Virus record (IMG/VR): IMGVR_UViG_648276652_000017
DNA: 11,259 bases
Source: a virus
Lineage: Duplodnaviria > Heunggongvirae > Uroviricota > Caudoviricetes
Reading direction: 5' to 3' (one strand)
Shown: in pieces, positions 1 to 11,259 of the stretch
Position numbering within the stretch: position 1 is the stretch's first letter
Layout: each line of letters starts with the position of its first letter
Made by a program: the position numbers and the translations under genes
The notes under the pieces: generated by a model
What the model saw: only the letters and a program-made list of their open reading frames with translations
Database searches by the model: none
What the model was told of the DNA's origin: nothing

Positions 1-1862
1 TCACCATGATTAATATAGGTAAACTGCGCATTCGCCGTTCCACTTCCGCTGGATGTTGTCGGTGTGGTTATGCGGATCGTCATCGCTGACTTTATCCCCA
101 TCACCTCAATGACAGCGCCGGCGAGATGAATATTTCCGCAGCCCGTATCCGTGATGATTTTATTATTACCGTAAGACCAGGAGCCCTTGCACATCCAGTA
201 TGGGTGGTTAAATGCGCCCTGAGAATCCAGCCACCCGATAAACTGTGCGGTCGTCCAGTCTCCTGTCGTTGTGCTTACGGCCCCACCGAAGGCACGGCAG
301 GCACCAATATTTTTCGTAAAGGTGTCTTTGTCGGGGACATCCGCACCGTTCTTATCTTTCTGCAGTCGTTTCTCAGCATTCTCACAGGCGGCTTTTACGG
401 CCTTTGGTGTTGCCGCCAGTGACTCGGACGTGCTGTTGGTCGCACTGCTGAGCTGGACTATCCCCTTTTTCGTCGTGCTCGCATCCTCAAGCGCCACGGC
501 AGACGCAATATCCTCCGCCCGTTTTGCCGCAGTCTCAGCGCGCGTTGCCGCGGATTCTGCCGTGCTTTTGCTCTGTGCTGCCGCTGTCGCACTGCCAGCT
601 GCCTCTGTCGCCTTCGCGGATGCCGTCGTGGCACTGCCCTGCGCCTCTGACGCCAGCCTTGCCGCCTCATCTTTTGAAGCTGACGCCGATGATGCTGATG
701 ACGCCGCCGAACTGGCGGACGATACGGCTGCCGTTTTTGAGGATTCTGCGCTGGTTTCCGACGCTTTCGCGTTCGTCTCGGATGTCCTCGCAGCGGAAGC
801 AGACCTCGCTGCTGCAGTGGCCTGTTCAGTGGCTTCGCCAGCCTTCGTTGTGGCTGCTGAAGCGGACGATGCGGCGCTTTCTGCCGATTTTCCGGCGGCG
901 GTGGCACTGGCTGAGGCCTCCTCCGCTTTAACTGACGCCTCACGGGACGATGATGCAGCGGCAGTTTCTGAGCCTGCTGCTGCGGAGGCACTCTGTTCCG
1001 CTGCCGTTTCAGAAGACCTGGCGTTCGTCTCAGACGTCTTTGCCGCCTTCGCGGAATTTCCTGCCGCCGTTGCCGAGGAAGCTGCGCTACCGGCGCTCGA
1101 GGCTGCGCTCGTTTCTGATGATTTTGCAGCCTCTTTTGAGGCCGCCGCATCCCTGGCTGACGTGGCAGCTTCTGACGCTTTCGAGGTCGCGGTGGATGCA
1201 GACGTGGCGGCTGATTGTTGTGACGCTGCCGCATTCGTTTCTGACGTTTTCGCGGCACCGGCACTGGTGGCCGCCGCGCTTTTTGAGGACTCTGCAGCGG
1301 CAGCACTTTTTGATGCCTCAGCGGCCTTTGCTGAGGCTGTTTCTGCGCCGGAAGATGCTTCCTGTGCTGACGTCGCAGCCTGTCCGGCGGACGTGCTGGC
1401 GGCGCGTGCTGAGCCTGCAGCATCAGTCGCATGGGTTGCCGCCTCACGGGCAGATGTTCCGGCATCGCCGGCGGATTTTTTCGCGGCTGCCGTGTTCTGT
1501 GCCACTGCGGACGCGTTACGCGCCACCTCTTCCACCATCAGTTCAAAACGGCGCAGAGCCTCCGGACGGGCATCATCCTCCGTCATGGCACCGAGAAAAT
1601 CATTCAGCGTACCGGGTCGGGAATCTTCATACACGGTGATGGTGCCGGCATGTGACGGCGGAAAACCGTCAACCAGCAGGATGACACCGTACTGGCCGTA
1701 CTCAACGTCCATACTGTAACGCCCGGCTTCATCCGGATTTTCTGAGGCCACCGTGTTCACCACCACCGTGGTACTGTTACGTTTTGCTTTCAGCTGAATG
1801 GTGCAGTTCTGTACCGGTTTACCTGCACCGTCTTTCAGCACGCCTGAAATCTTTACTGCCAT
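1..1862 (-). CDS. stf: Side tail fiber protein (lambda Stf/orf-401 family), 3'-partial; gene continues beyond window start
   Basis: Minus-strand ATG at 1862..1860. Hand translation begins MAVKISGVLKDGAGKPVQNCTIQLKAKRNSTTVVVNTVASE, the N-terminus I recall for lambda Stf. Centre is Ala/Ser/Thr-rich with KTSETNA-like repeats (e.g. SSETAAEQSASAAAGSETA around 960..1020). I checked by hand that this frame has no stop from 1862 down to position 3 (no TTA/CTA/TCA in plus frame 3). The plus ORFs 271..1719, 524..931, 950..1639 and minus ORF 458..1465 are out-of-frame shadows of this gene. Confidence 0.85.
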   Translation of the reverse strand, partial: MAVKISGVLKDGAGKPVQNCTIQLKAKRNSTTVVVNTVASENPDEAGRYSMDVEYGQYGVILLVDGFPPSHAGTITVYEDSRPGTLNDFLGAMTEDDARPEALRRFELMVEEVARNASAVAQNTAAAKKSAGDAGTSAREAATHATDAAGSARAASTSAGQAATSAQEASSGAETASAKAAEASKSAAAAESSKSAAATSAGAAKTSETNAAASQQSAATSASTATSKASEAATSARDAAASKEAAKSSETSAASSAGSAASSATAAGNSAKAAKTSETNARSSETAAEQSASAAAGSETAAASSSREASVKAEEASASATAAGKSAESAASSASAATTKAGEATEQATAAARSASAARTSETNAKASETSAESSKTAAVSSASSAASSASSASASKDEAARLASEAQGSATTASAKATEAAGSATAAAQSKSTAESAATRAETAAKRAEDIASAVALEDASTTKKGIVQLSSATNSTSESLAATPKAVKAACENAEKRLQKDKNGADVPDKDTFTKNIGACRAFGGAVSTTTGDWTTAQFIGWLDSQGAFNHPYWMCKGSWSYGNNKIITDTGCGNIHLAGAVIEVMGIKSAMTIRITTPTTSSGSGTANAQFTYINHG

Positions 1863-1920: not shown

Positions 1921-4900
1921 TCAGCTGATACTGATACCAGCTGTGGATTTCTTCATCACGACAACAAGAAGGTCACTGATACTGCTCGTTGGCGTCCAGT
2001 TATTAGCGCCATATGAAGAGACATTGAAAGTCAGGGTGACATGCCCGTGTCCTGCAGGCATATCAATGACTGATGAAAATACCCGACTGACATCCGTCGC
2101 AGGTTGGTGAAAGATTTCCTGTCCGTTCTTCAGTACCTGCAGCTTACAGGTTGAATACCAGTATGACTGTTGGTTGTTGCTGTTGAAGTTTTCATGCTTA
2201 CCACCGCGAAACAGAACGGGTGGAATCACTATCTGACGGTCAAAAGCCTGATCATCATACACAGTGACCGTTATCGTACCGCTGGCATAACTGCTGTTTC
2301 TCGGAAAGGCTTTTCCCACCGTTTTGACAATATCGCCTTCAATCTGGCTGGCAGACAGTTTTCCCAGAATCCGGCAGTTCTGGTTAATCGTGACGTTGTT
2401 GAGTGTTCCGGAGTTCGCATTTACATTACCGCTGATATCGGCATTTTTCGCCGTCAGCCGCCCGTCCGGCGTCAGGGAAAAGGCCGGAGGATTGCCGCCG
2501 CTGGTAATGGTGGGGGCCGTCAGGCGCTTCAGGAACACGTCGTTCATGAATATCTGATCGCCCTGACCAACAAACATCGGTTTTGTGTTGCCATTCGCAG
2601 GATTAACCATCGCAATCCTGTCCGCCGCCAGCAGCACCTGACTCTGCATGCCGTCAGGGGTGTTCTCAATACCGGCACCAATACCCGCGATATAAAGGCG
2701 TCCGTCCTGCATCTGCTGCAGCTTCACAGCCCACATGCTGTTCAGATTATTATTTGTATCAACCTGAACCTTCTGTATCTGCTGAATTGCCGCACTCTGG
2801 TCTTCCAGTTTCTTATTGACGGTCTGTGTGATTTCATTGCTGACATCCGTAATGGACGTCCTGATTTCAGCCAGATCAGGCGCCAGCTGACCGTTATCAA
2901 TCTGCGTCCACAGCTCCTGAGCCAGATGGGTTTTTCCTATCTCGCCTTTGAAAAAATCCAGATAGCCGGATGCATCATCACTCGGCTGACCAACAGCCTC
3001 CACGAATGCCGATTTGCCAACGGTGTTCACACTGCGGATATAAAAGTAATAATCATGGCCCGGCCTGATATTGATACTGGCGGCTATCCAGTACAGCGCC
3101 GTGCCAAGATAGCGTGCTGTGGTTTCAACCTGCCTGATATCCGCAATCCGCTTTTCCGAGAACCAGAACTCAAACTGTACCGTCGGATCATAAACCGCAA
3201 GATGCGGCGTGGCGGTTATCTGAAAATAGCCCGGCGTCAGCTCAATCCGCGACGGCGCTGCCGGTGCGGCAATCCGGAACGATACCGACGCCGGATCGCC
3301 CTGCTGCCCCCACGCATTTACTGCCCGGACTGTCAGCCTGTAGTTCCCCAGAGCCAGTTGTGTGAAGCGGTAAGTGGTTTCCGTCGTCCGGGCCGTGCTG
3401 ACCAGCCGCTCACTGCCGTCATCCGCTGCCACGGTCAGGCGAAGCATGAAACTCACGCCCTTCACCACCTTCGGCGTGTCCCAGCGGGCCAGTACCTGAT
3501 ACTCCCCGCTGTCTGCGGTGACTTCGGCAGTCAGGTGCTGCACTGCTGGCGGCGTGACACCATTCACCGTGCCGCTCTGGTCGCCGTCAAAGTGCGCCCC
3601 GTTATCCACGATAGCTTCTTTTTCCGGTACATGCTGCACGGCAGTGATGGCATACGTGCCGTCGTCGTTCTCACGGATACTCACGCAGCGGAACAGGCGC
3701 TGGCGCAGCGTCGGCAGCTTCAGCCCCCATACGCTGTATCCGGCAACGCCGTCAGGAACACGGCTCACTTTCACCTTCACGCCGTCGGTGACGGACTGAA
3801 CCTCCACGCTGACCGGATTACCACTTCCGTCAACCAGGCTTATCAGCGTGGTACCGGAGGATGGCAGCGTGATTTCACGGTCGAGCGTCAGCGTCCGGGT
3901 CTGGCTGTTTACCGCCAGCACGCGTCCGCCGGTGCGGATACCGGCATAGTCATCATCGCAGATTTCAATGACATCGCCCGGTACATGGCGAAGCCCTTCG
4001 GCACCCACGCTGAAGTCCACGGTCTGCGTTTCCAGCAGTTCTGTTTTAATCAGCCACAGCCCGGCGCGGTGTGCCTGCCCCCGGCTGGTACAGCCAAAAG
4101 CATCCATCTTCGTGACGTTACGACCGTAACGGGCAATGGCCTGCGTGTCCTCCACAAGCTCTGTCGCCGTCTCCCAGCCGTTATTCGGGTCAATCCAGTT
4201 CACCTCAACGGCATTATGGCGGTCCTTCAGGGCGCTGAAGCTGTAGCGGAACGGCGCGCCATCATCCGGCATCACCACATTACTGCGGTTATAGGTCCAC
4301 ACCTTATCCGACGGTCGGTCCTGCACGAACGTCAGCGTCTGCCCGTTCCATACCGGCATACAGCGCATCGCCGAGCAGAAATCACTGAGCACATCCCACG
4401 CCTTGCGCTGTGTGGTCAGGTACGCATTACAGGTGATGCGCGGCTCCGTGCCGCCAAAGCCGTCCGGCACTGACTGGTCGCAGTACTGGCCGATGACATA
4501 CAGCGCCCATTTGTCCACATCCGCCGCACCAAGACGTTTCCCCATGCCGTAGCGTGGATGGGTCAGCATATCCCACAGACACCAGGCCATGTTATTGCTG
4601 TATGCTGGCTTAAACGTTCCGTCCCAGATACCGCTGTATTGCCGAGTCTGCGGGTTATAGTTCGACGGCACCTGCAGAATACGCCCGCGCAGATGATAAT
4701 TACGGCTCACCTGCTGGCTGCCGAACTGCTCCGAATCCACCTGTACGCCGACCAGTGCCGTGTTCGGGTAGCACTGTTTCACATCGATGATTTCGGTGTA
4801 TGACGACCAGAGCGTTTTGTTCTGCAGCTGGTCTGTGGTGCTGTCCGGCGTCATCCTGCGCATCCGGATATTGAACGGGCGCGGCGGCAGGTTACCCACC

Positions 4901-5403
4901 ACCACCGATGCCAGATACTGCGAGGTGGTTTTGCCTTTAATGGTGATGTCTTTTTCCGTCACCCAGCCACCATTACGCTGTATCTGAACCAGCAGGCGGA
5001 CTTCCGACGGATTCCGGTCCCCCTTTGAGGTGGTTTCCACCAGTGCCTGCACACCGAAGGTAAAGCGCAGACGGTCGATGTTTGCCGACGTGATGGTCCT
5101 GGTAATCGGCGTGTCGTACTTCACTTCCGTACCCAGCACCGTCTCGGAGCCGGAGGATTCAAATCCCTCCGGCGGTGTCTGCTCCTGCTCACCGGCCCGG
5201 AACACCACCGTGACGCCGGATATATTGGTATTCCCCTCACTGTCCAGCACCGGCGTACTGTTCAGCAGCACGCTTTTTAATCCGTCCACCGGACCTTCAA
5301 CCGGCCCTTCGCTGATGGCATCGATCACACTCAGCAGCTGCGTGGACTTCAGGTTGTCCTTCGCTTCGCGCGGGGTATGCCCCTTACTGCTGCCTTTACC
5401 CAT
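1921..5403 (-). CDS. J: Tail tip attachment / host specificity protein J (central tail fiber), 1160 aa
   Basis: ORF track translation starts [54 protein letters not shown] and is collinear over most of its length with lambda J as I recall it (lambda J is 1132 aa). ATG at 5403..5401 and TGA at 1923..1921 confirmed from sequence. The C-terminal roughly 250 residues appear divergent from lambda J. Confidence 0.95.
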
Positions 5404-5425
5404 TCGTCATGCTCCATAAACGATA

Positions 5426-5445
5426 AAACCGCCCGGAGGCGGTTT
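5426..5445 (-). other. Perfect 8-bp stem / 4-nt loop hairpin in the I-J intergenic spacer
   Basis: Plus 5426..5433 aaaccgcc pairs with 5438..5445 ggcggttt, loop cgga. On the minus transcript it is followed by UAUCGUUUAUGGAGC and then the J ATG, with GGAG about 9 nt upstream of the start. Confidence 0.5.
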
Positions 5446-5463
5446 CACATAAAACATTTTGCA

Positions 5464-6105
5464 TCAGCGACCAATCACCACAACCTGACCACCATCCCCT
5501 TCGTCTGCCGTGCTGATCTCCTGAGAAACCACGCGTGACCCCACGCGCATTTCACCGTACAGAACCGGCAGAACATTGCCCTGGGCAACCATGTTATCCA
5601 GTGAAGAAAAATAGGTATTCTGTTTGCCGTTATCCGTTGTCTGTGTGCGGGGGGTTTTGGGTTTAGGGGCCAGCATCTGTGCAACACCGCCAAGCGTCAT
5701 ACTGGCACCGAGAGAAAACAGCAGATTACTCGCCATAATTCCTACCCCCGGCATCCATATAGCAACCGCCATAACAGCCGCCCCCAGCACAGCCTGAAAC
5801 ACACCGCCACTTTTGGCTCCTGCCAGACGCGGCACGATATGGATCACGGCACCATTTTCCAGCGGCTCATTAAGACGGGCAGACAATTCGGTTTCACCTG
5901 CATCACGCCCGGCAATGCGTACCTGGTACCAGCCGTCGCTCAGTTTCTGACGAAATGCCGGGATCTGCATGGCCAGCGCCCGGATGGCTTCGGACCCCGT
6001 TTTCACTCGAAGGTCGATGCGGCGGCCAAATCGTTGTAAATCCCCGTAAAGGCAGATGCGTGCCATGCCCGGTGACGCCAGAGGGAGTGTGTGCGTCGCT
6101 GCCAT
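5464..6105 (-). CDS. I: Tail tip assembly protein I (ubiquitin-like N-terminal domain family), 213 aa
   Basis: Translation MAATHTLPLASPGMARICLYGDLQRFGRRIDLRVKTG ... NGKQNTYFSSLDNMVAQGNVLPVLYGEMRVGSRVVSQEISTADEGDGGQVVVIGR matches lambda gpI as I recall it. Position is between K and J as in lambda. ATG at 6105..6103 confirmed. The start overlaps the 3' end of K by 103 nt in another frame, so the true start could be a downstream Met. Confidence 0.9.
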   Translation of the reverse strand: MAATHTLPLASPGMARICLYGDLQRFGRRIDLRVKTGSEAIRALAMQIPAFRQKLSDGWYQVRIAGRDAGETELSARLNEPLENGAVIHIVPRLAGAKSGGVFQAVLGAAVMAVAIWMPGVGIMASNLLFSLGASMTLGGVAQMLAPKPKTPRTQTTDNGKQNTYFSSLDNMVAQGNVLPVLYGEMRVGSRVVSQEISTADEGDGGQVVVIGR

Positions 6106-6746
6106 TTGTCGGTGTACCTCTCTCGTTTGCTCAGTTGTTCAGGAATATGGTGCAGCAGCTCGCTGTCACCACAGTAAATGGCGGCATGATTCGGCACCGA
6201 TGAACCAAAACAGCACAGCAGCACATCGCCCGGCTGCGCCGCTGACAACGGCACCTGATACAGCCCTGTGGCCTCCAGATTATCCAGATAGAGATTCTGA
6301 CCGTTACGCCACCAGTCATCCCCGCGATGAAAATCCGGCATCTCAATTCCCGCCAGATGGTAAGCGTCCCGGAACAGCGTGTAACAGTCCGTTACCCCGT
6401 GCTCAAAGCGCCGCCCGGTGAGATGCGGCACACAGCGGAATTTATGAATCGCCCCCCGGCAGACCAGCCACCACGGCAAATCACTCTGTACCTGCAGCCG
6501 CCGGTCGGCCTCACTCAGCCAGGGCAGACCACCGGGGTGGCTGTGGACCAGCGCCACAATCTCTCTCTGCATTTCTGCACTCAGCCAGTCCTCCGGCGAC
6601 ATCCGGAAATACTCCTCCGGCTCACCGGAGATATTCACGCAGGGAAAATATCTTTCCTCCTCCGGCGTTCTCACCACGAAGCCGCACGACTCCGCTGGCG
6701 CACATCGCCGGGCGTGCGCCAGAATCGCTGATTCTGTCTCTGTCAT
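6003..6746 (-). CDS. K: Tail tip assembly protein K (JAB/MPN metalloprotease-like plus NlpC/P60 peptidase-like domains), 247 aa
   Basis: Translation MTETESAILAHARRCAPAESCGFVV... contains a JAMM-like motif HSHPGGLPWLSEAD (HxH-x7-S-xx-D) and NlpC/P60-like Cys/His context (GVTDCYTLF, VPNHAAIYCGD). ATG at 6746..6744 lies 3 nt downstream of the L stop. Length is longer than the 199 aa I recall for lambda K, so the 3' end should be checked against references. Confidence 0.9.
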   Translation of the reverse strand: MTETESAILAHARRCAPAESCGFVVRTPEEERYFPCVNISGEPEEYFRMSPEDWLSAEMQREIVALVHSHPGGLPWLSEADRRLQVQSDLPWWLVCRGAIHKFRCVPHLTGRRFEHGVTDCYTLFRDAYHLAGIEMPDFHRGDDWWRNGQNLYLDNLEATGLYQVPLSAAQPGDVLLCCFGSSVPNHAAIYCGDSELLHHIPEQLSKRERYTDKWQRRTHSLWRHRAWHASAFTGIYNDLAAASTFE

Positions 6747-6751
6747 GGGAT

Positions 6752-7450
6752 TTACTGCGAAAGTTTGTTAATGGAAAGGAAGCTGCCAAAGTTGCCGACA
6801 TTATTGCGAAACTTACAGCCACTCAGGCATTTGCTGCATTTATCCTTCGTGATATCGGACGTCGGCTGGTCATATTCATCCGCGACCGCCGGACCGCTAT
6901 AACCGCACTCATCGCCGCGATAGGTCCAGGTGCAGGTGTTGGCCAGCATGATACGTCCCGGAAAAACAGCGCCATCCGTTTCAGTCGGCGTGGACAGTAC
7001 AAAAGAGGCACTGACCGCGCTCAGTTCGCTGCACTGCTCGATGCGCCAGCGGCTGATCACCTCCTGCTCCGGATCGGCTTCGCTGTTTCCGTTGACGAAG
7101 TTCACCGCATCCAGAAAGCGGGCGTAAACCTTACGCCGGACCACCGTTCCGCCGACCAGACTCTGCAGATCTTCCGCCATCCCGGTGATCATGCCGTGCA
7201 GGTTAGAGACCGTCAGTGTCGGACGGGCAGCACTGCCCTTGCCGTTCATCTCAAATCCACTCCCCTGAATGGGATAGGCCTGATACTGCCGACTCTGCCA
7301 GGTGACAGACTCACCTTTTTCGTTCTGCTCATTACAGAAAAAGTAGCGATCCCCGCCTACCTCGGTCAGGTCGATTTCCCAGAGCACCACGCTGGCCGAC
7401 TGCTCCGCACGAATGCATTCATTCAGCGTTTCCTGTTGTATGTCCTGCAT
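6752..7450 (-). CDS. L: Minor tail protein L, 232 aa
   Basis: Translation MQDIQQETLNECIRAEQSASVVLWEIDLTEVGG ... CSKCLSGCKFRNNVGNFGSFLSINKLSQ is near-identical to lambda gpL as I recall it, with the same length (232 aa). ATG at 7450..7448, TAA at 6754..6752. Confidence 0.95.
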   Translation of the reverse strand: MQDIQQETLNECIRAEQSASVVLWEIDLTEVGGDRYFFCNEQNEKGESVTWQSRQYQAYPIQGSGFEMNGKGSAARPTLTVSNLHGMITGMAEDLQSLVGGTVVRRKVYARFLDAVNFVNGNSEADPEQEVISRWRIEQCSELSAVSASFVLSTPTETDGAVFPGRIMLANTCTWTYRGDECGYSGPAVADEYDQPTSDITKDKCSKCLSGCKFRNNVGNFGSFLSINKLSQ

Positions 7451-7454
7451 CAGA

Positions 7455-7787
7455 TCACCACTTCGTCAAACTGACACGAAAAATCGGTATAGGTGATATG
7501 TTCTGTCGCTGACCACGTTCGACACACCACTCTGATTTTTCTGTTAATACCCGGCGGGCGCCAAAAAAAGATTTATAGCCTTCATGCCGGGCTAAAAATT
7601 TTTCAAATGAATCACGTTCATTCGCCTCAACTTTGAAATCACAGGTGAAAACGCGCAGAGAATGATTAAGTCCATTTGGACTTCGTTGCTCATAACCATC
7701 GCCAAATCTTACAGTTTTTATCGATGGTTTATTTTCTGTTTTCATTCCATCCTCTGGTAACCAGTGAAATTCTTCCGTATTAGCCAC
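7455..7787 (-). CDS. M: Minor tail protein M (lambda gpM family, divergent), 110 aa
   Basis: Translation contains FHWLPEDGM...[12 protein letters not shown], resembling lambda gpM (FRWKVKPGM...KVRFGDGYSQR). The start codon at 7787..7785 is GTG, not ATG, and overlaps the H stop (minus strand GTGGCTAA, with TAA at 7782..7780). Similarity to lambda M extends upstream of the internal ATG at 7745, which favours the GTG start. The gene lies in A+T-rich DNA, unlike L. Confidence 0.8.
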
Positions 7788-10700
7788 TTAACATTCCCCC
7801 ATCACGTCGCATATTTAACAGATTGCCCTGCACCCGCTGATCAACCATCCCCATAAGTGCTTTTATTGCCTGAGGGCCAATCTCTCCATTCTGGCCGTCA
7901 TTTTGAATAGTGATTTGGTATACAGGGGCATAGGTAATATCTCCGCCTCCATTACCACTTTTACTATTAATAGCTCTGACACCAAGAGAACCATCGGAAG
8001 TTCGTGTTAATGGCATAATGGCTTCCGGTCCAGCCTCACCAAAAACACCAGCCCCTTTTGCAAAAGCAAAAAATTGCGGGGAATCATAAATACCGTTCGA
8101 ATACGTGCTCAATGACGGAGACTCATAAACACCGCCCTTTGCATTCGGAATAAATTTACTAATAGCACTCCCGATAGTTCCTAAAATCCCCCCAGAAGAA
8201 CTGTTACTAATGCTGTCGAAAATCCCAGTAATTGAAGCCTTTAATGCTATTCGACTAAGATCCGAAATCACGGAAGTAGCGAAAGAACGAAAATTTGCCT
8301 TGCCTGTCGTGACAAAATCACCCAGCGCATCGGTCATCCCATCAAACATCTGAGTCGTGGTTGATTTTATCTGCTCACTGATATCCTTAGTGTCATCCAG
8401 CCAGTTATTGAATCCCTGGGAGGCACCACTAACCCAGTCTCCTGCCTGAATATCGAGCTGCTCGTTTTTCTGTCTGACAATTTCTTTTTCCCGTTCCAGA
8501 GCATCATTCAGAGCCTGCATTTTCTCTTGAAAAACATGATCTGACATTCCACGGGATTTATCTGCATAGTCACGTTCAAGTTGCAGACGCTGATTGTTAT
8601 ATCCATGTTCAATCCGCAGTAATTCCTGCTGGCGTTGCTGATTTTTATCGCCAACCCCATAACCAGCAATCTGAATATCATACCCCTGCTGACGATTATC
8701 AATCGAAGCCTGCAATGAATCACGCCATGCTGTTATTTCGGCGGATTCCTTGATTAGCCTGTTATTTTTTTCAATCGCAACATTTTTCTCCATCAACGTG
8801 GTTATTTCTTCCCGGTGTAAGAGAAGCGATTTCTGATCCTGGGTTAATTTCGATGATGGTCGTGACTCTAGGTCGGCAATCCGCTGACGCCACTTAACCA
8901 GTTCCTGTTCAGAGGAACTTAATTTAACGGTCAACTCAGCTTGTGAACTTAGTAACGCATTCTGTTGATTCAGATGATCAATCATTCGTTGGGCTGCATC
9001 ATCAGAATAATCTTTCGCCTTTGGTTGCTTTGGATCTTTATAACGCTCATTTATTTGAGCGATAAGATTATTATATTCTTCCTTTGAATACTGATTCTTT
9101 AGCTTTTCCAGTTTTGCAAGTTCACTAGCTCTCTGCTGCTCCCGGGTCTGATATTGTTTTGAAAAGGCATCTGCTCTCTGTCTGAGTTCAATTCCTTCCT
9201 GTTGTCGCTTGTTGTAATCGTTTATTGATGAATTTAGTACGTCCTGAGCAATTTTTTCTGCTTGAAGTACGCCCAATTGCTGCTTTAATCGTGCCAGCCT
9301 TTTATTTTGAGCTCCGCCATCTCCAATGCCACCTAACCCGAAAACTCCGGATCGGGTATTTTTTTCTATTTCATCAATTTGACGGAGAACATCTGAGATT
9401 TTTTGATCAAGGGAGGCCTCACGGCCAATATCCAGCATGGAATCCCATGCCCATTTTGCGGAGTCTGCGACAGCTTTCCATGCAGTCTCAAGATAACCAA
9501 GATTTTCTTTAATCTGGTTGGTGCGCTGGATCATTGAGGATGAGTATTCTTCTGTCGCAATGCGGGCGGCCTCCTGCTGGTTCCCTTCATCCTGTAGCGC
9601 CTTAATCTGGTTATAAGTCGCAAGTGTCAGAAAATGGTACTGATCATTAAGTTTTGATATGGCACTGACAGGATCCTTTGCAATTTCATTGAAGTCATTA
9701 ACCAGTTGTTCGGTTGATATTCCTGTTACTTCGCTCGTTTTTACTATCGCTGTCGTCACTTGCTCCAGCGAACTGCTCGCTACCTTTCCCGAACGCACAA
9801 GCTGATTTAATACTGCCGCCGCAGCACCAGTTGTCGAATCAGCCGCATTCCCGGCACGTTGAGCTAAATCGCCCAATTGCCCGCTGGTTGTCCCCAACTG
9901 ATTTCCGGTAAGAATAAGAGATTTATTAAATTCGTCCTGCTCCTGAGAGCCTTTATAGTAAGCCAGTCCTAAGACCCCAACGGCTGCTGCGGCCAGGGTA
10001 AAAGGATTAATTAATCCCAGCACATAAGAACCTACCCCTTTGATCGCCGGGCCAATCCCACCGAACATATCTTTTAGCTGGCCGCCCTGCTGCATTAACA
10101 CCATAAATGGCGACTGACCAGTGGACAACCCAACAACAATATCCGTCATTTGTGCAGGCAACATGCGCATAGCAAAAGCCGTTTGTTTTGCCGACATTCC
10201 GGTTTTGCTTAATTGTGATTGAGTAACCTCAAGCTCACTCCGCATAGCACGAAGTTTTCCAGAAAGCTCCTCATACATTTCAGGAGAAAGCATCCCCTTA
10301 GCTTTTGCTTCATTGAGCTGTTTCTGTTGTTCTACCAGACGATTAAAAGCAGTTCCGACAGGATCAAGTTGAGCAATCAGACGTTGCAAAGCAACAACCT
10401 GTTCATCATGCGCTTTTGCTGCTTCTCGCTCTGCCTGAGCCTCTCCGGTAAGCTCTCGCCGTGTTTCCTGTATTTTTCGGCTATAATTCTCAAACTGAGA
10501 ACCATTTATTTTCCCGGATGCAAACGCAGCATTAAGTTCATCATGCTGTTGTTCAAGATTTCTTAGCGCCGCAGCCAGAGGGTCGATCTTGTCCAGCATT
10601 CTTTGAAAGGCCTGAGCCTGCGCTTCCTGCTGGGCGGCAGCAAGTTTTCCGGCCTTCTCGGCTTCTCTCTGCGCTTGCGCAACCCCGCTCAATTCCTCTG

Positions 10701-10923
10701 TGGTTTCATTAAGTTTACGGACAAGAAATTCATATTCTTCTTTATCAATAAGCCCTTTATCGAAAAATTTCTTTAATTCAGAATAGCGTCGACCGACAGT
10801 ATCAATTGCGGCACCAACTGGATCAATAGCTGCTTTTAATTTTGCGAGCGCGTTCTTCTCATCTTCTGTTGCCTTAGTCACTTTCCCTGCGCTATTTGCA
10901 GCAGTTTCCCCAGCCTGCGTCAT
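7780..10923 (-). CDS. H: Tail length tape measure protein (lambda gpH family), at least 1047 aa; 5' end probably displaced by the IS2 insertion
   Basis: Contains [41 protein letters not shown] (compare lambda [41 protein letters not shown]) and the C-terminal [16 protein letters not shown]...RRDGGMLSG block (compare lambda ...NNDGTNGQIGPAALKAV...MRDGGLFSG). Long coiled-coil-like, Q/E/K-rich centre. The reading frame stays open upstream of the ATG at 10923 up to and into the IS2 end, with no in-frame ATG/GTG/TTG and no Shine-Dalgarno before 10923. Confidence 0.9.
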
Positions 10924-11004
10924 TTTGACTAATGAGGAGGTCAGATTGTCAGCATTATTTTTCGCTCCAGTGCTATCAATAATTATTGCGAGACGCGAGG
11001 TTTG

Positions 11005-11045
11005 TAGACTGGCCCCCTGAATCTCCAGACAACCAATATCACTTA
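11005..11045 (+). repeat. IS2 left terminal inverted repeat region (approximate extent)
   Basis: Terminal sequence TAGACTGGCCCCCTGAATCTCCAGACAACCAATATCACTTA matches the IS2 end as I recall it. It contains an internal 8-bp inverted repeat ATCACTTA-tt-TAAGTGAT at 11038..11055. Confidence 0.7.
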
Positions 11046-11095
11046 TTTAAGTGATAGTCTTAATACTAGTTTTTAGACTAGTCATTGGAGAGCAG

Positions 11096-11259
11096 ATGAT
11101 TGATGTCTTAGGACCGGAGAAACGCAGACGGCGTACTACACAGGAAAAGATCGCTATTGTTCAGCAGAGTTTTGAACCGGGAATGACAGTCTCCCTTGTT
11201 GCCCGGCAACACGGTGTGGCAGCCAGCCAGTTATTTCTCTGGCGCAAGCAATACCAGGG
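11096..11259 (+). CDS. insC: IS2 transposase OrfA (InsC), 5'-partial (first 54 codons in window)
   Basis: ATG at 11096 preceded by GGAG 7 nt upstream. Translation matches the IS2 InsC N-terminus, including the helix-turn-helix region ([22 protein letters not shown]). Runs off the window end. Confidence 0.9.

Follow-up and report, generated by a model that had tools for sequence, protein, structure and literature searches.

Why do two adjacent genes of one tail operon, genes whose stop and start codons overlap, look as if they came from different phages? The question is raised by the viral record IMGVR_UViG_648276652_000017 (Caudoviricetes), a stretch of 11,259 nucleotides (nt) that was analysed at its full length and is called the window below. 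In the direction of transcription it carries the tail genes H, M, L, K, I and J and the start of stf, and an earlier note, made from the letters alone, had described a mosaic junction between an A+T-rich H–M segment and a G+C-rich, lambda-like L–K–I–J segment. By comparison with its relatives, the window appears to be the tail region of a Rac-type lambdoid prophage. We consider it likely that an A+T-rich Rac late operon was joined by recombination to a G+C-rich block of tail-tip and fibre genes at 7443–7472, and that the seam is the edge of usable homology.

Position of the seam and the compositional step

The loss of similarity to lambda at this point is abrupt. Alignment of the window with the lambda genome (blastn) gave 92.1% identity over 4,603 columns, pairing window positions 2907–7472 with lambda 13407–18002, and no alignment in M or H. 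Six successive blocks of 200 nt past 7472 were 47–51% identical to lambda in global alignment, compared with 44–46% (maximum 0.50) for shuffled controls. Mismatches to lambda are found at 7454, 7462, 7464 and 7465 and are unbroken from 7473 on, and identity falls from 92% to the level of the shuffled controls in about 25 nt. The substitutions at 7454–7465 give the M protein the C-terminus QFDEVVI, a private variant of the family motif F-E-Q-V-V-N. The seam is placed at 7443–7472 on the minus strand, a span that takes in the final seven M codons, the stop codon of M (TGA, 7452–7450) and the overlapping L start (ATG, 7450–7448; together TGATG). With more than 90% identity between genomes that are otherwise dissimilar, the lambda-like part agrees with the definition of a recent mosaic tile given by De Paepe et al. 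(2014).

The encoded proteins change at the same place. The product of the tape-measure gene H (7780–11004, minus strand) is 28% identical to its lambda counterpart over 852 columns, and that of the minor tail gene M (7450–7787, minus strand), with a frameshift repaired, is 42% identical; both are as distant from lambda as the earlier note had said. The products of L (6752–7450, minus strand) and K (6003–6746, minus strand) are 93.5% and 96.5% identical to those of lambda, a fair match to the near-identity that had been claimed for all four genes downstream of M, which was generous for I (79%) and J (83.6%).

The change in base composition is equally sharp. The G+C content (GC) and the G+C content at third codon positions (GC3) are 0.450 and 0.385 in H, and 0.411 and 0.315 in M. 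The corresponding values are 0.558 and 0.674 in L, 0.591 and 0.673 in K, 0.570 and 0.570 in I, and 0.564 and 0.672 in J. A maximum-likelihood scan of 1921–11004 put the GC change point at 7412 (support interval 7396–7479), with a GC of 0.567 on the J–I–K–L side and 0.445 on the M–H side; the log-likelihood ratio was 64.6, compared with a maximum of 11.4 among 200 block shuffles. Synonymous codon usage differed between H+M and L+K+I+J (chi-squared = 333, 41 degrees of freedom, p = 2e-47) and did not differ between the two halves of H (chi-squared = 36.5, p = 0.58). Since it is the synonymous codons and GC3 that differ, the shift in composition sits at silent sites. An effect of amino acid composition on the GC of the tape-measure gene was considered and rejected on the GC3 and synonymous codon tests.

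The contrast between an A+T-rich H–M and a G+C-rich L–K–I–J was thus borne out by GC, GC3 and the change point, and the check that the earlier note had proposed, GC and codon usage across the tail module, gave a step at the seam rather than a uniform profile. Its breakpoint, described as at or just upstream of the M/L boundary, is correct as to the boundary; it is not upstream of M, as the seam lies in the last M codons and the stop/start overlap. The span that had been marked, 7440–7800, covers M together with the initial codons of L, and only its low-coordinate end, at 7443–7472, is the seam proper.

The two sides in Rac-type prophages and in E. coli

The window matches the record "Salmonella phage SPF_0923" (ON032529.1, L004 in our set) at 94% and many E. 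coli chromosomes at 95–97%. Over the whole window, three close relatives, L001, L002 and L004, are 96.8%, 97.4% and 94.1% identical. All three adjoin tfaR/stfR, pinR, ydfK, uspF and ompN – the Rac prophage locus, on its ttcA side – a position that is seen in these relatives, the window itself ending in stf and in the insertion sequence IS2. The L004 record is a chromosomal segment that holds a Rac-type prophage together with ompN, uspF, sitABCD, trkG and part of a pyruvate-flavodoxin oxidoreductase gene; it is not a packaged phage genome, and its Salmonella host label needs caution.

In these relatives the late genes upstream of the tail are not of lambda type, and code among others for a capsid protein of the P22 family, a DUF4055 portal and a head protein like Mu F. 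In a complete Rac-type relative every gene from terminase to M has a GC of 0.41–0.52, and the genes from L to J have 0.55–0.60. The values in lambda are 0.54–0.60 for every one of V, G, H, M, L, K, I and J, so the G+C-rich tile belongs in the left arm of lambda-type phages and is foreign to the Rac-type operon. The tile is longer than the window can display: in complete Rac-type prophages it corresponds to lambda 13407 to about 22540–22608 and contains the end of M, the genes L, K, I and J, a part of lom, and stf and tfa. By this content it is the whole host-recognition block, reaching past J to stf and tfa.

The relatives of the two sides are different. There are 278 records in the phage collection that match the window; the lambda-like ones, which match the L–K–I–J side, stop at 7402–7472, and only Rac-type phage records run on into M and H. 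A sensitive search of the same collection with M–H alone found ten Rac-type records at 98.5–99.7% identity. The other matches were Klebsiella phages at about 70%, in the part encoding the H N-terminus, and the tails of Stx phages at 68%, in the end of H and the start of M.

The tape measure itself is made of two parts, an N-terminal part like that of a Klebsiella phage and a C-terminal third like that of an Stx1 phage. Over residues 1–737, H shows 63% identity to the tape measure of Klebsiella phage ST16-OXA48phi5.1, a phage in which Rac-type genes for head and shaft are combined with a different, non-lambda tail tip; over residues 779–1077 it shows 43% identity to Stx1-phage H. The older joint between these parts lies at about 8680–8800 in the window (codons ~737–779 of the 1077-residue form) and is not accompanied by a break in composition or codon usage. 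The repaired Rac-type M is 50% identical to Stx1-phage M. From these identities, the C-terminal third of H and M seem to go with lambda-type tips, in an old A+T-rich version. In a scan of one genome per species of GTDB, this Rac-type M was found only in Shigella flexneri (100%) and Escherichia ruysiae (98%), and the next relatives, in Providencia and Oceanisphaera, were 43–44% identical.

The distribution of the joint was examined in 5,426 complete E. coli genomes with two probes of 600 nt, one centred on the seam and one from M and the end of H. The seam probe matched in 4,188 genomes (median, two places in each), and in 716 of them a match spanned the seam. In an evenly spaced sample of the ranked matches, all of the partial ones were on the L side only, at or before 7472, and most ended exactly at probe position 300, which is position 7472 of the window. 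The M–H probe matched in 720 genomes, at a median of one place per genome and with at least 99% identity in 669. No Rac-type M beside another kind of L was seen among the sampled E. coli matches, and practically every carrier of Rac-type M has the same M/L joint.

On either side of this fixed joint the pattern of divergence differs. The window was compared with a non-random set of ten Rac-type loci. It is 99.6% identical to L004 in M–H and 90.9% in I–K–L; the corresponding values are 99.7% and 93.2% for L008, and 98.5% and 91.7% for L007. A further pair, L006 and L009, is 100% identical in M–H and 98.4% in I–K–L. Divergence in I–K–L among Rac-type loci is patchy (82–100% per 100 nt), and between different Rac-type prophages the alleles of L and K lie roughly as far apart as each of them lies from lambda. 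Between the window and L004 the mismatches go as far as 7437 and break off there. Near-clonal M–H beside patchy, divergent I–K–L implies that the lambda-like side has been overwritten repeatedly, each time no further than the seam, and that the seam is the place at which homology ends.

The searches suggested by the earlier note, with H–M and L–K–I–J taken separately, returned different best relatives (Rac-type and lambda-like records, respectively). Its two broader proposals fared well: the different histories of the tail halves are upheld by the relatives, the GC of the upstream operon and the clonal M–H beside divergent I–K–L, and a modular breakpoint of the kind expected under lambdoid mosaicism by the relatives, the GC and the pair identities.

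Within the lambda-like block there are two further places where similarity drops. The 3’ end of J, 1921–2900, which is the receptor-binding region, is only 37–83% identical to lambda, and over 1900–2300 it is 52–73% identical to other Rac-type loci; it probably holds a second mosaic seam, in keeping with what host-range swapping would produce. In gene I, a patch at 5673–5872 is 52–64% identical to lambda. Over 5673–5772 this gene is 54–60% identical to the Rac-type loci L004 and L006–L009, and 100% identical to L001 and L010. The patch is best read as a small replaced tract within the lambda-like block.

Origin of the joint

In the reading that we prefer, the Rac-type operon would contribute its own genes from terminase through H and M, which are A+T-rich and have few relatives. 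From the M stop and L start on, L, K, I and J, and normally lom, stf and tfa, would be drawn from a G+C-rich pool of alleles common to lambda and to the prophages of most E. coli genomes. Exchange would take place by homologous recombination with co-resident lambdoid prophages and with infecting phages, the likely agents being host RecA or phage annealases of the Red/RecET type. Between lineages, exact matches of 14–100 nt are frequent in L, K, I and J and lacking in M and H; conversion tracts could then run to the M/L boundary and stop there, Rac-type M and H having no recombination partner. The seam would be inherited by essentially all carriers of M–H, and the lambda-like side would be replaced repeatedly. 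The founding event may have been homologous, within the short sequence at the boundary or within a cognate L that has since been erased, or it may have been illegitimate. There is experimental precedent for such exchange, in that lambda gains DNA from Rac, Qin and DLP12 through relaxed homologous recombination for which Rad52-like annealases are needed (PMC3945230).

The data are clear on the compositional step, the homology step, the fixed position across genomes and the clonal as opposed to patchy divergence, all of which favour this reading; the enzymology of the exchange, and the choice between a homologous and an illegitimate founding event, are what we infer. Across the M/L boundary, Rac-type, lambda and Stx1-type phages share GTGGTGA(A/T)CTGATGCAGGA, although outside this stretch the DNA of their M genes cannot be aligned. 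Exact-match runs of at least 14 nt among the lambda, Stx1 and Rac lineages are frequent in L and K and lacking in M, the first being at 7443–7464. Between lambda and Stx1 phages such runs, of 14–34 nt, recur all through L and K. This control weakens the idea that the boundary word is uniquely conserved.

A search of IMG/VR with the boundary word found at least 120 loci, 102 of the loci listed having full flanks. In the IMG/VR loci listed, five M lineages lie upstream of the word and two L lineages downstream. Lambda-type M with lambda-type L accounts for 59 of the 102 flanked loci, a fourth M type with Stx1-type L for 18, and Stx1-type M with Stx1-type L for 10. A third M type and the Rac-type M are each found with lambda-type L (7 loci each), and lambda-type M is joined to Stx1-type L once. 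Five M and two L lineages at the same word make the M/L boundary a recurrent lambdoid seam, not a Rac peculiarity.

Two of these combinations among the IMG/VR loci listed are of note. In L063 and 17 others, the word links an Stx1-type L to an M with about 75% identity to that of lambda, and in L059 and 6 others the third M lineage is joined to a lambda-type L. Both kinds would appear to be further independent seams at the M/L boundary.

Scans for other signals found little. There is no RNA family in the whole window by Rfam. Between 6900 and 8300 there are two promoter-like sites (shuffled mean 1.5) and three terminator-like sites (shuffled mean 1.5), none of either on the coding strand at the seam. 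No direct or inverted repeats were found in 7200–8000, so the joint bears no site-specific or transposon-type signature.

Several points weigh against homologous exchange up to an edge of homology. A trace of homologous recombination was taken as a flank at least 10 points more identical than background, and no such trace to lambda was found on the M side (47–51%, compared with 44–46% shuffled), in a comparison with lambda at one end of the tile, the other end lying beyond the window. Because no homology to lambda is detectable on the M side, the founding joint could equally be illegitimate. Some of the ten Rac-type loci compared with the window were picked from an identity ranking. No donor of the A+T-rich M and H C-terminus above 43–44% identity was found outside Escherichia/Shigella in the GTDB scan of one genome per species. 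The boundary word, moreover, encodes the conserved C-terminus of M and N-terminus of L and contains the stop/start overlap, and the GGTGGTG within it, which lies 7 nt upstream of the L start codon, resembles a ribosome-binding site. With these roles to account for it, the conservation of the word is no proof of a role in recombination.

The alternative that survives best differs from the preferred reading only in the founding event. It holds that a single illegitimate recombination took place at a random point, that the joint at the gene boundary was kept by selection, in the manner described by Hendrix, and that later variation in L–K–I–J came from ordinary homologous exchange. We regard this as possible, though the less probable account. 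The M-side flank, no more similar to lambda than the shuffled controls, is as it would predict, and so is a joint that falls exactly at a gene boundary and is practically invariant in 716 genomes, as expected of one founding event. About 30% of recent mosaics keep traces of homology, and about 70% of those in E. coli phages are without them (PMC3945230). What tells against it is that five M lineages and two L lineages meet at one and the same word of 19 nt, which is the L–K block's first patch of conserved sequence: repeated crossover within short homology would yield this more easily than repeated random joining.

A stronger form of the homologous account would make the word itself, GTGGTGAWCTGATGCAGGA, a habitual crossover site of 19–25 nt at which the L-to-tfa block is swapped onto unrelated tail shafts. 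The word is common to five M lineages and identical over 19 nt, and the five M and two L lineages that meet there, as well as the position of all 716 E. coli joints, are consistent with such a role, which we nevertheless hold to be rather unlikely. The modular theory of phage evolution as Botstein put it forward is said to have included conserved linkers at module boundaries. If it is a crossover site, the word would be a concrete case of such a boundary linker in the original theory.

Descent without recombination from a lambda-like ancestor, with H and M evolving fast and drifting to low GC, is highly improbable. H and M are indeed the least conserved tail genes in every lambdoid comparison of this analysis: between an Stx1 phage and lambda, identity is 27% in H and 45% in M, compared with 77% in L and 85% in K. 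However, gradual divergence does not fit a change in GC3 of about 0.3 within some tens of nucleotides, a fall from 92% identity to the shuffled level within 25 nt, an upstream operon that is equally low in GC as a whole, or near-identical M–H copies that carry L–K–I alleles 7–9% apart. Least probable of all is that two prophages of the source genome were fused artificially during sequencing or assembly. A median of two lambda-type L copies per E. coli genome could confuse assemblers, and the window does contain a homopolymer frameshift, but the joint recurs in 716 independent complete genomes, in 10 phage records and in 7 IMG/VR contigs. Taken together, the population, change-point, pair-identity and flank data exclude both vertical descent and an assembly chimera.

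Known systems and the state of this copy

Junctions between mosaic modules are a familiar feature of lambdoid phages, and modular evolution was described by Botstein and by Hendrix and colleagues. Like those junctions, the seam is a sharp transition from similar to unrelated sequence at a gene boundary within a syntenic late operon, and nothing about it is different in kind. No description of this Rac-type M/L joint was found in the literature searched. The seam is a real and well-defined example of a known phenomenon and leaves current understanding as it is; for the most part the result bears out textbook lambdoid mosaicism, and the gain is modest.

The closest published parallel is the set of mosaics of De Paepe et al. 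2014 (PMC3945230), in which a tile more than 90% identical to lambda likewise lies in an otherwise unrelated prophage. Rac was among the experimental partners in that study, with exchange across stf–tfa, a region that the lambda-like tile here also takes in. The experiments used the Rac remnant of K-12, which is outside the present comparison, and here the M side is without a trace of homology. Prophages of Rac and Rac-like type in E. coli/Shigella are known from K-12 Rac, from KingRac (PMC6731689) and from Sp10 and CP-933R (PMC4632033); the window’s relatives resemble them in lying beside pinR–ydfK–uspF–ompN with genes of the stfR/tfaR type. Unlike them, the window has no attachment site or early genes, and its copy has IS2, the M frameshift and no lom. 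Rac-like prophages can be active, long-tailed phages (PMC6731689).

Compared with the lambda tail tip, the window has the same H–M–L–K–I–J order, overlapping stop/start signals and the same Pfam families, with L and K 93–97% identical. H and M differ (28% and 42% identical), intact H having 1077 amino acids (aa) and lambda H 853, and the N-terminal two thirds of H are related to the tape measures of Klebsiella phages with a different tail tip.

The seam is the point at which a widespread E. coli prophage family, present in about 13% of complete genomes, stops being private DNA. Past it lies a pool of tail-tip and fibre genes shared with lambda-like phages, the genes that determine host range. 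For prophage typing, M–H is a reliable lineage marker and the L–J–stf region is not. For phage engineering, it is of use that Rac-type M, with no more than 42% identity to its lambda counterpart, evidently functions in nature alongside lambda-type L–K–I–J, if such prophages make tails; tail production has been reported for a Rac-like prophage (PMC6731689).

The gene layout that the earlier note had assumed was confirmed by open reading frame calls and Pfam, with the addition that everything is on the minus strand. All six tail products were assigned above curated cut-offs to the expected lambda tail families, and by gene order and families the set belongs to the lambda-type tail-tip module. 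The families are TMP_2, TMP_4 and Tape_meas_lam_C for the A+T-rich H, Phage_min_tail for the A+T-rich, Rac-type M, Phage_tail_L for the G+C-rich, lambda-type minor tail protein L, and Prok-JAB plus NLPC_P60 for the lambda-type tail assembly peptidase K. Gene I (5464–6105, minus strand) encodes a lambda-type tail assembly protein (Lambda_tail_I). Gene J (1921–5403, minus strand) encodes the tip attachment protein, with seven J domains in Pfam; it is of lambda type over 2907–5403 and has the divergent 3’ receptor-binding end.

Two genes of the module are damaged in this copy. M has a run of seven T at 7563–7569 (minus strand), where four relatives, L001, L002 and L004 among them, have eight. The deletion of 1 nt shifts the frame after codon 75, so that the product has 110 aa where intact M has 112; the frame that remains open is 7455–7787, and the intact gene of the relatives ends at the TGA at 7452–7450. 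The M of E. coli YDC107 has the same T run and is annotated as “frameshifted”. The run may be a real pseudogene mutation or a homopolymer sequencing error. In H, the first 9 nt have been replaced by IS2 at 11005, and the longest remaining open reading frame is 7780–10923. The left end of IS2 (11005–11259, no strand assigned) abuts the truncated tape-measure gene; the 255 nt within the window are 95–99% identical to annotated IS2 copies in several records, and the terminal sequence TAGACTGGCCCCCTGAATCTCC begins at 11005. The window’s IS2/H joint was not found in the 5,426 complete E. coli genomes. It may reflect a simple IS2 insertion or an IS-mediated deletion of upstream tail genes, the upstream side lying beyond the window. 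S. flexneri SFBU0723, 98.7% identical, was considered as the source of the window and rejected.

The third peculiarity is the lack of lom. J ends at 1921 and stf starts at 1862, with a spacer of 58 nt, while lom is present in three Rac-type relatives; in Rac-type relatives and in lambda an Ail/Lom gene of 600–620 nt lies between J and stf. As a functional module, for which all tail-tip genes should be intact, the copy falls short in its frameshifted M and in the H start lost to IS2, and with the M frameshift, IS2 in the H start and no lom it is probably unable to build tails. The 5’ part of the side tail fibre gene stf (1–1862, minus strand) comes directly after J and runs off the window; its translation starts MAVKISGVLKDG at 1862, and it is 87% identical to lambda stf at the nucleotide level. 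Co-linear matches to the window over about 11,000 nt, which leave no space for an insert of about 600 nt at this point, occur in a few E. coli strains, for example SA31-1, Ceylon31 and 357900, and suggest that the lom-less arrangement is present there as well.

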